Assembly: GCF_003334255.1 (NCBI RefSeq)
Contig: NZ_QOWU01000028.1
Source: Escherichia coli
Lineage (GTDB): Bacteria > Pseudomonadota > Gammaproteobacteria > Enterobacterales > Enterobacteriaceae
DNA length: 59,824 bases
Reading direction: 5' to 3' (one strand)
A program made the position numbers and the translations under genes. Positions 2,459 through 17,858 of the stretch are shown here, in pieces. The notes under the pieces were generated by a model. That model did not search any database, was not told where the DNA came from, and worked only from the letters and a program-made list of their open reading frames with translations. Position 1 is the first letter of the stretch, and each line of letters opens with the position of its first letter.

Positions 2459-3640
2459 TTAGCGTTCAACGATCGCGATGCGGCGGTTATAGATATTCAT
2501 CAGCAGCGAGATAGTCAGGCTGATAATCAGATAGACCGACATGGTCATGGCTATCGTCTCGATGGCTTGCCCCGTCTGATTCAGCACGGTGCCGGCAAAC
2601 AGCGAAACCATATCGGGATAGCCAATAGCGGCGGCAAGAGAGGAGTTTTTGACGATGTTGAGATACTGGCTGGTTAACGGTGGAATAATCACCCGCAATG
2701 CCTGGGGAATAATGACCTGGCGTAGCGTAACCGGGTTGGGTAATCCCAGTGACCGAGCCGCTTCATGTTGACCATAAGGCACTGCCTGGATCCCAGCGCG
2801 GATAATCTCGGCGATAAATGCAGATGTATAAACCGAAAGTGCCAGCGTTAAGGCTGCCAGTTCAGGAATTAAAACCATCCCGCCGCGGAAGTTAAAGCCT
2901 CGTAGGGCTGGGACATCCCAGTGTAGTGCTGCGCCAAAAAGCCATTGCGCCAGTAAAGGCAAACCAATGATCAACACTGCGGCGATCGGCCAGGTGCGGC
3001 GCAGTTGTCCGGTCTTTATCTGGTATGTTTTATTAAAGCGGAATAGCCCAACAGAAAGGACTATAGCCATAACAACAGCCAGGATAAACGCAATAAATCC
3101 GTCTCCCAGCTGCGGTGACGGAATATAAAGCCCACGATTGCTCAAAAAGGCCAGATCAAACGCGCTCACAGCCTGGCGTGGTCCGGGCAAATTGCGCAAC
3201 ACGGCAAAGTACCAGAAGAAGATTTGCAGCAGCGGGGGAATATTACGGAAGATCTCAATATAAATTGTGGAAAGCTTTCGTAGCAGCCAGTTATCCGAAA
3301 GTCTCGCCAGACCGATAAAGAAGCCCAAAACAGAAGCGAACACAATACACAATGCAGAAACCAGTAGCGTATTGAGTAAGCCGACAATAAAAACGCGTCC
3401 GTAGGTGTCGCCCTGCTGGTAATCGATCAAATGCTGGACAATACCGAAGCCAGCGCCGCGATCCAGAAAGGCAAAACCTGAAGTAATGCCACGATTATTG
3501 AGATTCGTTACAGTGTTGTGAAATAACCAACCAACAATGCCGACAACAGCAACAACGGCAAGGATCTGGAATAACCAGGCGCGAACCGTAGGGTTGGCAA
3601 AAGAGAGTGAGCCTTTAACGGTTGAGCGGCGATGAGACAT
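2459..3640 (-). CDS. yhdX: Amino-acid ABC transporter permease
   Basis: Hydrophobic multi-TM ORF; start trimmed to MSHRRSTVKG (393 aa) from the 399-aa ORF. Confidence 0.85.
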   Translation of the reverse strand: MSHRRSTVKGSLSFANPTVRAWLFQILAVVAVVGIVGWLFHNTVTNLNNRGITSGFAFLDRGAGFGIVQHLIDYQQGDTYGRVFIVGLLNTLLVSALCIVFASVLGFFIGLARLSDNWLLRKLSTIYIEIFRNIPPLLQIFFWYFAVLRNLPGPRQAVSAFDLAFLSNRGLYIPSPQLGDGFIAFILAVVMAIVLSVGLFRFNKTYQIKTGQLRRTWPIAAVLIIGLPLLAQWLFGAALHWDVPALRGFNFRGGMVLIPELAALTLALSVYTSAFIAEIIRAGIQAVPYGQHEAARSLGLPNPVTLRQVIIPQALRVIIPPLTSQYLNIVKNSSLAAAIGYPDMVSLFAGTVLNQTGQAIETIAMTMSVYLIISLTISLLMNIYNRRIAIVER

Positions 3641-13823: not shown

Positions 13824-14705
13824 TTAATTCTTACGACCGGTAATACGGCACCACTCTTCTTTTTCCACGACCGGGTCCAGTGCGAAGCTATCGGCATAAG
13901 CTTCACAAACGCTCTCTGCCTGGCTTGCCAGAATACCGGAAAGGCCCAGCAAACCGCCTGAAACCGGCAGGACGCTGATTAACGGTGCCAGTTCACGTAA
14001 TGGGCCTGCAAGGATGTTAGCGACCACCACGTCGGCTTTCATTTCTTCTGGCTGATCTTTCGGTAAGTAGAGTTCCAGACGGTCAGAAACGCCATTACGT
14101 TCGGCGTTATCGCGGCTGGCCTGAATCGCCTGCGGATCGATATCAATACCAATGGCTTTTGCTGCACCCAGTTTCAGCGCCGCGATCGCCAGAATGCCGG
14201 AACCACAGCCAAAGTCGATGACTGTTTTACCGGTTAAATCGAGGCTGTCGAGCCATTGCAGGCACAGAGAGGTGGTTGGATGGGTACCCGTACCAAACGC
14301 CAGCCCTGGATCTAACATCACGTTGACGGCGTTTTCGTCCGGCACATCACGCCAGCTAGGGCAGATCCACAGTCGTTCACCAAAGCGCATCGGGTGGAAA
14401 TTATCCATCCATTCGCGCTCCCAGTCTTTATCTTCTAGTTGTTCGATTTTATGCGCGAAGCCTGCGCCGAGCAGCGGATGGTTTTCCAGAATCGCCACCA
14501 CGTCGTTCATATCGGTTTCAGCGTCGAACAGACCAATCACATCGGTGTCGCCCCACAGGCGCGTTTCGCCCGGCAGCGGTTCAAATACTGGCGTATCGTG
14601 GGTATCCTGAAAAGTGATAGAAACGGCACCCGCTTCCATCAGCGCATCGCTAAGATCTTCCGCGTTCGCGCCGGTGGTGTTCAGTTTCAGTTGGATCCAA
14701 GGCAT
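13824..14705 (-). CDS. prmA: Ribosomal protein L11 methyltransferase
   Basis: 293-aa [35 protein letters not shown]... with methyltransferase fold motif. Confidence 0.95.
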
Positions 14706-14716
14706 GGCAAAACTCT

Positions 14717-16168
14717 TTATTTATCAGTAGTCAAAACGGTAGCTTGCGGGACGGATGTACCGAAACGGTTTCCGACCAGGAAAGCCAGCAAACTTAGTAG
14801 TAACGAGGGCACGATAGGGTGGAAGCCCAGGTACTGAATATTCAGCGTCGCGAGTACGGCATACAGCACGCCGCCAACGATCATCGCACTTAGCGCGCCT
14901 TTGGCGTTGGCGCGTTCCCAGTAAAGACCCAGCACCAGCGGCCACAGGAAAACGGCTTCCAGCCCACCGAAGGCCAACAAATTCAGCCAGATGATCATTT
15001 CTGGCGGCTTCCAGGCGGCAAGCAGCAGCAACGCGCCGAGAACTAACGTAATTACCGCCGACATCCGCTTCAGACGCGTCTCGTTTTGCATTTGATCCGG
15101 ACGGATATTCAGATAGAGATCTTTAATGATCGTAGCGGAACTTTGCAGCAGTTGGGCGTTAATTGTCGACATGATCGCAGCCATCGGTGCAGCCAGGAAG
15201 ATCCCGGCAGCAAACGGTGGCAGCACTTTTACCATTAACGTTGGGATCACCAGGTCCGGTACGGTGAGATCGGGGATCACCGCCCGACCTAACGCTCCGG
15301 CCAGGTGCATACCGAACATCAGAATTGCGACCACAATCGTACCGATGATGATCCCCCGATGTACGGCTTTGCTGTCTTTATAAGAGATACAGCGCACCGC
15401 AGTATGCGGCAGGCCAATCACGCCAAAACACACCAGTACCCAGAACGACGTCATAAAGGCAGGCGACAGAATATCGTCAGCGCCTTGTGGCGTAACCAGT
15501 TGCGGATCGATGGTTTGCAAGGTCTGTACTGCGTTACTTAAGCCGCCAGCGGCATGTACTACGCCAATAAGCAGCACAACGGTGCCAATCAGCATCACAA
15601 GCCCTTGCATGGTGTCGTTCAGCACGCTGGCGCGAAAGCCACCAAAGGCGGTATATAACGCAATGCTGATACCAAAAATCAGCAGCCCGGTTTCATAAGG
15701 AATACCCGCCGCGGTTTCCAGCAGGCGCGCACCGCCGATAAACTGCACGGTCATCGCACCAACGAACGCAACCAGCAAACTCAAACTCGCCAGCCACACC
15801 AGAAGACGACTCTGGTAGCGGGCAAACAGCATATCGTTCAGCGTCACTGCATTGTAGCGGCGCGCAAGAATCGCAAACTTCTTGCCGAGAATACCGAGTG
15901 AAAGCCAGACTGCAGGAAGCTGAATCATCGCCAGCAATACCCAGCCCAGCCCGTATTTATAAGCAGCTCCTGGCCCGCCGATAAACGAACTGGCACTGAT
16001 ATAGGTCGCGGTGAGCGTCATCGCCAGCACAATACCGCCCATAGAGCGGCTGCCGAGGAAATACTCATTAAGGAAGGTGCCGGTGCTCCGTTTACGCATC
16101 GCATAAACCGAGATACCGAACACCACCACCAGATAGGCGACCAGCGGTAGAATTACTTCAAGCTGCAT
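14717..16168 (-). CDS. panF: Sodium/pantothenate symporter (SSS family)
   Basis: Multi-TM ORF; start at [15 protein letters not shown] (483 aa). Confidence 0.95.
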
Positions 16169-16400
16169 CGTCATCCTCCAGTGGGATATCGCGATAGATA
16201 AATTTCACCATCGCCCAGCACAGTCCAATAAACAGCAGCGGCGTCAGGATGCAGGCCATCTCAAACCAGCGCGGAAAGCCGGTAAAACCGGGGGCAACGC
16301 CAGATAAGTAAGCGGCTACTAACCAAACTGCCAGATACAAAAGGGTCAGCCCCAGCGCCCAGCGCGCCTCTTTATGGGCCTGAACAAAACGAGTGTCCAT
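16158..16400 (-). CDS. yhdT: Small membrane protein (DUF997), overlaps panF start
   Basis: 80-aa ORF with two hydrophobic segments; its stop overlaps the panF start by 11 nt. Confidence 0.8.
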   Translation of the reverse strand: MDTRFVQAHKEARWALGLTLLYLAVWLVAAYLSGVAPGFTGFPRWFEMACILTPLLFIGLCWAMVKFIYRDIPLEDDDAA

Positions 16401-16464
16401 TTTTTGTCCCTGATGGGTGAAGAAAGCGGGGATTGTACCTTATGGGGGTTGTCGATCCCCAGTA

Positions 16465-16494
16465 ATAAAAAAGGCCGGAAAATCCGGCCTTTTG
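16465..16494 (-). terminator. Intrinsic terminator after accC
   Basis: AAAAAAGGCCGGAAAATCCGGCCTTTTG: perfect GGCCGG/CCGGCC stem with flanking A/T runs just 3' of the accC stop. Confidence 0.65.
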
Positions 16495-16508
16495 ACGCTT
16501 TAGCAGTC

Positions 16509-17858
16509 TTATTTTTCCTGAAGACCGAGTTTTTTCTCCAGATAGTGGATGTTAGTGCCACCATGCTGGAAGTTCTCGTCATTCATGATGCGGATCTGCA
16601 GATCAACGTTGGTTTTGATACCGTCGATGATCAGCTCCTGCAGCGCATTCTTCATGCGGGCAATCGCCACGTCACGGTTTTCACCGTAGCAAATCAGCTT
16701 ACCGATCATTGAGTCATAGTACGGCGGTACGGTGTAGCCCGCGTAGATATGAGACTCCCAACGTACGCCAAAACCGCCAGGTGCGTGGAAACGGGTGATT
16801 TTGCCCGGACTTGGCAGGAAGGTGTTCGGATCTTCGGCGTTGATACGACATTCCACCGCATGGCCGCGAACGTGAACTTCTTCTTGCTTGATCGACAGCG
16901 GTTGACCGGCAGCGATACGCAGCTGTTCTTTGATCAGGTCAACGCCGGTGATCATTTCTGTAACCGGGTGTTCTACCTGAATACGGGTGTTCATTTCGAT
17001 GAAATAGAACTCGCCGTTTTCGAACAGGAACTCGAAAGTACCTGCACCGCGATAGCCGATATCAACACACGCTTTAGCGCAACGTTCGCCGATGTAGCGA
17101 CGCAGTTCCGGGGTAATGCCCGGTGCTGGCGCTTCTTCGACCACTTTCTGGTGGCGGCGTTGCATGGAGCAGTCACGTTCCGCCAGATAGATAGCGTTGC
17201 CCTGACCGTCAGCCAGTACCTGAATCTCGACGTGGCGAGGATTTTCCAGGTATTTCTCCATGTAAACCATATCGTTGCTGAAAGCAGCTTTCGCTTCCGC
17301 ACGGGTCATGGAGATGGATTGTGCCAGTTCAGCGTCGCCGCGCACTACGCGCATACCGCGACCGCCGCCGCCGCCGGAGGCTTTGATAATCACCGGATAA
17401 CCAATGCGTTTAGCAATGGCACGGTTTTTATCCATATCGTCGCCCAGCGGGCCGTCAGAACCCGGTACGCAAGGGACGCCCGCTTTTTTCATCGCCGCGA
17501 TTGCGGATACTTTGTCGCCCATCAGGCGAATGGTTTCTGCTTTCGGGCCAATGAAGATAAAGCCGGAGCGTTCAACCTGCTCGGCAAAGTTGGCGTTCTC
17601 GGAGAGGAAGCCGTAACCCGGATGGATTGCTACTGCGCCGGTGATTTCAGCGGCGCTGATGATTGCCGGGATGTTCAGATAACTTTTTACTGACGGAGCA
17701 GGGCCAATACAGACCGTTTCATCTGCCAGTAATACGTGTTTTAGATCGCGATCCGCGCTGGAGTGCACAGCGACAGTCTTGATGCCCAGTTCTTTACAGG
17801 CACGAAGAATACGCAATGCAATCTCGCCGCGGTTGGCAATAACAATTTTATCCAGCAT
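16509..17858 (-). CDS. accC: Biotin carboxylase subunit of acetyl-CoA carboxylase
   Basis: ORF with ATP-grasp motifs; start at [16 protein letters not shown] (449 aa). Confidence 0.98.

Follow-up and report, generated by a model that had tools for sequence, protein, structure and literature searches.

What does the small membrane protein YhdT do, and does the overlap of its gene with that of the sodium/pantothenate symporter PanF reflect a shared function? The question is raised by a 59,824-nucleotide (nt) stretch of Escherichia coli DNA (contig NZ_QOWU01000028.1 of assembly GCF_003334255.1; "the window" refers to this stretch at its full length), in which yhdT and panF lie head-to-tail on the minus strand. 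Among E. coli K-12 genes, yhdT is one that still lacks an assigned function, and its product belongs to DUF997, a Pfam family of unknown function. Our analysis leads us to conclude, with a probability of roughly 0.65, that YhdT is a small protein partner dedicated to PanF, and for this partnership we infer translational coupling of the genes, association of the two proteins, and a requirement for YhdT in transport.

Linkage of DUF997 proteins to the PanF clade

The two genes occupy the following positions in the window.

16158..16400, minus strand: yhdT coding sequence, 80 amino acids plus TGA stop, DUF997/YhdT family (open reading frame, Pfam, NCBIfam, RefSeq, and the ratio of nonsynonymous to synonymous substitution rates, dN/dS)
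14717..16168, minus strand: panF coding sequence, 483 amino acids plus stop, SSS-family sodium/pantothenate symporter (TIGR02119, RefSeq, AlphaFold2 fold match)

An earlier note on this DNA, made from the sequence alone, had assigned the products to DUF997 and to PanF of the SSS family of transporters, and curated models bear out both identities. The yhdT reading frame extends over 80 codons from the ATG at 16400 to the TGA at 16160-16158. Its product matches the Pfam DUF997 model (PF06196) over residues 7-77 of 80 with E = 4.5e-28, and scores 165.8 bits on NCBIfam NF007918 (cut-off 107). YhdT carries the full DUF997 signature (E11, then G-x-P-x-W-F, then L74), has the two hydrophobic helices, and falls within the length of approximately 80-130 amino acids that is characteristic of the family. 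PanF scores 758.2 bits over residues 4-471 on TIGR02119, the NCBIfam PanF equivalog model (cut-off 328.05), and its sequence in the window is identical to that of RefSeq K-12 panF.

The linkage of the two families was analyzed starting from the small protein. Contig positions were obtained for ten DUF997 proteins with 23-51% identity to YhdT, and at all ten loci the next gene on the same strand had the TIGR02119 PanF model as its best NCBIfam match; the five partners that were full-length all exceeded the curated cut-off (399-758 bits). The junctions consisted of a 4-nt overlap at five loci, an 11-nt overlap at three, and a 1-nt overlap and a 43-nt gap at one locus each. No orphan DUF997 gene situated away from PanF was found among the loci examined. 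The other neighbours varied: gammaproteobacterial loci had accBC and prmA, and those elsewhere had a glucokinase, HD-domain, amidohydrolase or aminotransferase gene.

The linkage was also analyzed starting from the transporter, the samples here being the best 80 of more than 500 matches. Enterobacterales species were gathered with a PanF alignment led by E. coli PanF (the genome-contig scan returned only Enterobacterales), and DUF997 was found directly upstream of panF in all 79 assessable species. A second scan, of metagenomes, started from a distant PanF, the partner of P0208 (named relatives in Synergistota and Bacillota), and gave 80 loci with 41-70% identity to that PanF. DUF997 lies upstream in 74 of these 80 loci, which amounts to 74/74 of those assessable, the other six having at most 160 nt of upstream DNA; the partners that were sampled all scored above the TIGR02119 cut-off (10/10, 432-752 bits). 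In a plasmid collection, DUF997 was immediately upstream of PanF in 4/4 cases, these being Cetobacterium somerae, Fusobacterium vincentii, Bacillus sp. N5-665 and Cytobacillus spongiae. This collection includes several records of 2-5.5 Mb that are evidently whole chromosomes labelled as plasmids, most of them with little or no gene table. Further named taxa with DUF997 are Necropsobacter, Aeromonas, Desulfovibrio, Synergistales, Pectinatus, Oscillibacter and Lachnospiraceae, and the named taxa span at least five phyla (Pseudomonadota, that of Desulfovibrio, Synergistota, Bacillota and Fusobacteriota).

These data establish that the DUF997-PanF pairing is specific to the PanF clade (TIGR02119), that it holds in both directions, and that it is the sole constant of the neighbourhood. 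The phylogenetic profiling of DUF997 beside SSS transporters that had been proposed as a check is strongly positive, but for the PanF clade only and not for SSS transporters generally. A dedicated partnership is supported because the pairing holds both ways across at least five phyla while the other neighbours change. This same evidence bears on the proposal that YhdT acts outside pantothenate transport, with an overlap of the ordinary operon kind and a neighbourhood explained by common descent or economical expression. Gene overlaps occur frequently in bacterial operons, and the gammaproteobacterial pair sits within a conserved accB-accC-yhdT-panF-prmA block of otherwise unrelated functions. 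Outside the gammaproteobacteria, however, all neighbours but PanF change, and co-occurrence in 10/10, 79/79, 74/74 and 4/4 assessable cases over at least five phyla greatly exceeds what could be expected from inherited gene order. An unrelated function is extremely improbable and close to refuted.

YhdT as a protein and its counterparts

Codons 1-72 of yhdT, compared between Enterobacterales and E. coli, gave a median dN/dS of 0.19 at a median dS of approximately 0.9, the dN/dS of panF in the same comparison being 0.045. By this sequence comparison, yhdT is under purifying selection and encodes a real protein. An exhaustive profile search resolved the DUF997 family into 160 cluster representatives. 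The longer DUF997 matches were frameshifted read-throughs or P0191, which is probably spurious: this repetitive protein of 637 amino acids gives ten partial matches to the YhdT profile around ITGLPHW, and looks like a spurious translation of repeated DNA.

Residue conservation was counted over 113 DUF997 members with less than 70% mutual identity. P43 and W45 are present in 100% of these, E11 in 98%, A12 and F46 in 88%, L74 in 86%, C50 in 84%, W26 and G41 in 81%, and F or Y at position 69 in 80%. The conserved residues are arranged around two predicted helices as follows.

16305..16361, minus strand: predicted YhdT transmembrane helix 1, approximately residues 14-32, after the conserved cytoplasmic motif Q7-x-x-[KR]-E11-A12 (hydropathy, AlphaFold2)
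16263..16280, minus strand: signature G41-x-P43-x-W45-F46, predicted periplasmic turn and start of helix 2 (conservation)
16200..16268, minus strand: predicted YhdT transmembrane helix 2, approximately residues 45-67, followed by the cytoplasmic motif F/Y69-[KR]-D71-x-x-L74-[DE] and an acidic tail (hydropathy, AlphaFold2)

The positions of the G41-x-P43-x-W45-F46 signature are invariant or almost so in a 72-sequence DUF997 alignment as well. Hydropathy peaks at residues 14-36 and 45-69, and the AlphaFold2 model of YhdT is a two-helix hairpin (helices 3-32 and 44-67) with a mean predicted local distance difference test score (pLDDT) of 92; the two predictions agree with each other and with the earlier description of YhdT as a two-helix membrane protein. 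Based on the positive-inside rule, both termini would be cytoplasmic and the G-x-P-x-W-F turn periplasmic. A structure look-up found no solved structure for YhdT or PanF. We considered whether conservation of L74-E75 could be a mere by-product of the CTG-GAG-G Shine-Dalgarno sequence encoded there, and rejected this possibility, L74 being kept at 86% in phyla with different junction DNA.

The conserved cytoplasmic segments bear on the proposal that YhdT is a regulatory subunit, which would bind PanF and tune uptake, for example by slowing it when coenzyme A (CoA) or pantothenate is plentiful, and would be dispensable for basal transport. The motifs Q-x-x-[KR]-E-A and F-[KR]-D-x-x-L-[DE], together with the acidic tail, could sense or gate, and the strict linkage to PanF is equally compatible with such a role. 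YhdT has no ligand-binding domain, however, with only about 25 residues lying outside the membrane, and deletion of yhdT resembles a loss rather than a gain of uptake, although polarity confounds that phenotype. Nothing in the analysis speaks specifically for regulation, and we regard this role as distinctly improbable. The earlier note had suggested an accessory or regulatory subunit; the strong two-way comparative linkage supports the part of that suggestion that makes YhdT a dedicated partner of PanF, and the regulatory part found no support.

Comparison with known small partners of SSS transporters provides a context for a dedicated partnership. YjcH (DUF485, PF04341) and ActP, an SSS permease of the acetate/monocarboxylate type, resemble YhdT and PanF in that the gene for a small two-helix membrane protein lies immediately upstream of, and overlaps, the SSS gene; in E. 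coli K-12 the yjcH-actP overlap is 4 nt (L098:4855-6815). Transposon cofitness led to the inference that DUF485 and DUF4212 are small components needed by their SSS transporters (bioRxiv 10.1101/072470), in a study that does not mention DUF997. The likeness of DUF997 to these systems rests on architecture and gene context, whereas DUF485 has cofitness support, and PanF differs from the ActP clade, scoring 42-58 bits on ActP models with cut-offs of 750-1099. DUF4212 (TIGR03647, "solute:sodium symporter small subunit") is, like YhdT, a small hydrophobic protein in a conserved context with an SSS large subunit (the VC_2705 family, TIGR03648), and its need for transport was predicted by curators and then backed by cofitness (bioRxiv 10.1101/072470). 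PanF is unlike this type of large subunit also, with 71 bits on TIGR03648 (cut-off 321).

The association of MAP17 (PDZK1IP1) with SGLT2 and SGLT1 parallels that proposed for YhdT and PanF, in that a small membrane protein is bound to a transporter with the SSS fold. MAP17 spans the membrane once, and SGLT2 needs it for activity. The solved SGLT-MAP17 complexes (8hb0, 7vsi, 7wmv) were the best structural matches to the PanF model. MAP17 differs from YhdT in being eukaryotic, in having a gene unlinked to that of the transporter, and in its unrelated sequence. The yhdT-panF pair also resembles ordinary coupled operon pairs (ATGA, TGATG), which share with it a stop/start overlap and a downstream Shine-Dalgarno sequence within the upstream reading frame, but unlike these it is kept as a unit across phyla while the neighbourhood turns over. 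By analogy, YhdT probably resembles the DUF485, DUF4212 and MAP17 systems functionally and architecturally, and not by descent.

Possible coupling and association, and genetics of the pair

Three features define the junction of the two genes.

16158..16168, minus strand: 11 nt common to the yhdT 3' end (GAT GCA GCT TGA) and the panF 5' end (ATG CAG CTT GA) (sequence; relatives)
16175..16179, minus strand: panF Shine-Dalgarno sequence GGAGG, within yhdT codons L74-E75-D76, 6 nt 5' of the ATG at 16168 (sequence)
16172..16174, minus strand: alternative in-frame panF ATG (MTMQLEV...), two codons 5' of the annotated start (the open-reading-frame list starts here)

The junction reads CTG GAG GAT GAC GATG CAG CTT GA, with the panF ATG at 16168 and the yhdT stop TGA built from panF codons 3 and 4. 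The 11-nt overlap reported in the earlier note is correct; the same overlap is present in RefSeq K-12 MG1655 (yhdT at 3201-3443 and panF at 3433-4884 of L001), and is retained in 78/79 Enterobacterales species, with 76 ATG and 2 GTG starts at that position. The yhdT homologue ends in TGA in 78/79 species, and GGAGG lies within 11 nt 5' of the conserved panF start in 69/79. The sole deviating junction, that of Klebsiella sp. BIGb0407 (L050:2480-2515), has an 8-nt overlap (ATGCATAA) and a TAA stop. Use of the alternative ATG at 16174 would produce a 17-nt overlap and leave zero spacing to GGAGG. In-frame starts are found at -14 in 18/79 species and at -17 in 39/79; because these are sporadic and 78/79 species keep the start at -11, the annotated start and its 11-nt overlap are the conserved ones. 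The ATG at 16168 is favoured as the start of panF, and that at 16174 is probably unused. The overlap itself is standard annotated K-12 sequence and nothing new, and an overlap of 11 nt is unremarkable in one genome, but its degree of conservation exceeds chance.

Beyond the Enterobacterales the junction is more variable. The metagenomic loci yielded 68 non-redundant junctions, whose lengths rest on inferred start codons: 55 are overlaps of 1-16 nt (mostly 4, 8 or 1), 11 are gaps of 0-16 nt, and 2 are larger gaps. The larger gaps of 224 and 110 nt belong to L136 and L160, respectively, in which DUF997 still adjoins PanF upstream. The loci of Fusobacteriota and Bacillus sp. N5-665 have short gaps and a separate Shine-Dalgarno sequence, and that of Cytobacillus spongiae has an 8-nt overlap. 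Overlap-based coupling or reinitiation is not universal, because of the gaps in L136 and L160 and the short gaps in Fusobacteriota and Bacillus sp. N5-665. In a further PanF locus (L113:1-170), an upstream reading frame overlaps the PanF start by 11 nt (ATGAGCGGTAA) and the contig ends before the DUF997 domain; this is probably a DUF997 protein with a long tail. The conserved overlap and the position of the panF ribosome-binding site within yhdT make translational coupling of the E. coli genes plausible. The supplements of PMC10746267, consulted for the synthesis rates of yhdT and panF, do not list these genes.

We propose the following mechanism for a dedicated partnership. yhdT would encode a two-helix inner-membrane protein with its N- and C-termini inside and a short periplasmic turn bearing G-x-P-x-W-F. 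With both genes head-to-tail on one mRNA, ribosomes finishing YhdT would be delivered to the panF start, given that yhdT ends 11 nt into panF, whose Shine-Dalgarno sequence is located within yhdT. YhdT and PanF would be made at the same membrane site, where YhdT could pack against PanF as a small accessory subunit, aiding its insertion, stability or activity. A stronger form of this reading makes PanF-type symporters obligate two-component transporters, with the DUF997 hairpin as a universal second subunit whose absence would leave PanF uninserted, unstable or inactive. We entertain this stronger form tentatively and with some doubt. A variant of it, in which the pair must be made in cis, YhdT acting during co-translational insertion of the N-out first helix of PanF, is more speculative.

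The arrangement of the junction also raises the possibility that yhdT is a cis-acting leader, its translated hairpin bringing the ribosome and mRNA to the translocon and handing ribosomes on to panF, with the finished YhdT having no lasting role in transport. Such a leader would help PanF, which has an N-out first helix and almost no N-terminal tail. Overlapping or near-touching junctions in 66/68 metagenomic and 79/79 enterobacterial loci are in keeping with this, as is the observation that DUF997 was never seen apart from PanF and never fused to it, a fusion being topologically awkward if YhdT ends in the cytoplasm and PanF begins on the outside, as the positive-inside rule predicts. In the Keio deletion collection, moreover, closely following genes lose protein once the upstream reading frame is removed (PMC8547470). 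For targeting, however, any hydrophobic hairpin would serve, whereas DUF997 proteins of at least five phyla share an invariant P43 and W45 and keep E11, F46, C50 and L74 at 84-98%. Nor is reinitiation general, given the gaps of 110 and 224 nt and the separate Shine-Dalgarno sequences that accompany the short gaps of Fusobacteriota and Bacillus sp. N5-665, and panF carries its own GGAGG. A role of yhdT as a leader alone is unlikely.

Physical association of YhdT with PanF, which is part of the dedicated-partner reading, was approached by modelling. The AlphaFold2 model of PanF matches the folds of SGLT1/2, SiaT and vSGLT (Foldseek against the PDB), which confirms the SSS fold but not a docking position for YhdT. 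A linked PanF-GS20-YhdT model of 583 residues, predicted from 24 paired sequences, had a predicted template modelling score (pTM) of 0.84, this being a single model judged by pTM and pLDDT alone. The approximately 475 ordered PanF residues of the 583 could yield a pTM of at most about 0.815, and because PanF alone would not exceed this value, part of the 0.84 would have to come from the placement of YhdT relative to PanF. Association of the two proteins is thus weakly suggested by the model.

The literature on yhdT and DUF997 is nearly empty, and provided one relevant result. Côté et al. (2016) found that synthetic lethality with all four of panB, panC, panD and panZ was confined, apart from the recA and recC deletions, to those of yhdT and panF (PMC5120140). 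The synthetic lethality of the panF deletion with these four genes, seen in rich medium, is the published genetic basis for pantothenate transport by PanF (PMC5120140). In the Keio design the cassette goes in 21 nt ahead of the stop codon of the gene being deleted, so as to spare the downstream ribosome-binding site; applied to the yhdT sequence, this design would leave the panF ATG and GAGG. The Keio yhdT phenotype fits a requirement for YhdT, but polarity on panF accounts for it equally well, and such an effect on an overlapping downstream gene is to be expected of this type of deletion (PMC8547470). If PanF-type symporters are obligate two-component transporters, then the published phenotype would be a true loss of function and not polarity.

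Several points weigh against YhdT being a partner of PanF. PanF clades without DUF997 may exist outside the best 80 of more than 500 matches that were sampled. No fusion of DUF997 to an SSS transporter was present among the DUF997 matches (79-131 amino acids in one search, less than 200 amino acids in the profile search), a lack that may be explained by the topologies modelled for the C-in end of YhdT and the N-out start of PanF. Homology to the established small partners was not found: for DUF485 it is rejected by hhalign, which gave a probability of 1.6% for the DUF997 profile against YjcH, and for DUF4212 a Pfam scan gave a non-significant match to YhdT (E = 8). With regard to coupling, panF has a strong GGAGG of its own, such that coupling may be dispensable, and no unusual RNA structure was found at the junction (minimum free energy -24.4 kcal/mol, z = +0.76 relative to shuffles); a structure masking the panF ribosome-binding site is unsupported by the same comparison with shuffled sequence. 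With regard to association, linking YhdT to PanF did not raise the pLDDT of YhdT, which was about 86 compared with 92 for YhdT alone. Any hydrophobic hairpin is apt to be placed against a membrane protein by AlphaFold2. Finally, Côté et al. explained the Keio yhdT phenotype by a disrupted panF, with which yhdT overlaps (PMC5120140), and a loss of protein level is documented for closely following genes in Keio deletions (PMC8547470).

Neighbourhood of the pair and significance

The order of minus-strand genes in the window is accC-yhdT-panF-prmA, which is the E. coli K-12 arrangement. RefSeq annotates the region as accB, accC, yhdT (YhdT family protein), panF (sodium/pantothenate symporter), prmA, dusB and fis. 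The 2 kb from 14600 to 16600 are 100% identical to E. coli K-12 MG1655, and were found in 5426/5426 complete E. coli genomes. The features flanking the pair are as follows.

13824..14705, minus strand: prmA, after an 11-nt gap following panF (open reading frame and annotation)
16407..16411, minus strand: weak Shine-Dalgarno-like AGGGA, 6 nt 5' of the yhdT ATG (sequence reading only)
16469..16493, minus strand: intrinsic-terminator-like hairpin and T run after accC, the predicted upstream bound of a yhdT-panF(-prmA) unit (consensus scan)

prmA is part of the conserved gammaproteobacterial neighbourhood and lies outside the DUF997-PanF pair, being found downstream of panF in the gammaproteobacterial loci L002 and L013 but not in Desulfovibrio-type or Synergistota-type loci. 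In L002, whose contig encodes P0125, a DUF997 protein assigned by NCBI to Necropsobacter rosorum (Pasteurellaceae), a gene of the Ser_hydrolase family is located between panF and prmA (L002:4707-5252), the accC-DUF997-panF part being unaltered. According to the consensus scan, the terminator-like hairpin after accC has an 11-bp stem with 6 G-C pairs followed by TTATTA, and no consensus sigma-70 promoter is present in the 68 nt between this hairpin and yhdT. Expression of yhdT and panF may be driven by a weak promoter or by transcription reading through from accBC.

A partnership of YhdT with PanF is unlikely to be very surprising to a specialist, but would have several consequences. A complementation test should precede any dismissal of the Keio yhdT phenotype as polar. 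If YhdT is a subunit of PanF, a domain of unknown function would gain a function, and the textbook view of the pantothenate permease as a single protein would change. Heterologous expression and engineering of PanF, for instance for uptake of CoA-precursor analogues, should in that case include yhdT. DUF997 would then also constitute a third, unrelated bacterial family of small partners beside DUF485 and DUF4212, with MAP17 in mammals, and SSS transporters would appear to have recruited small membrane partners several times independently.

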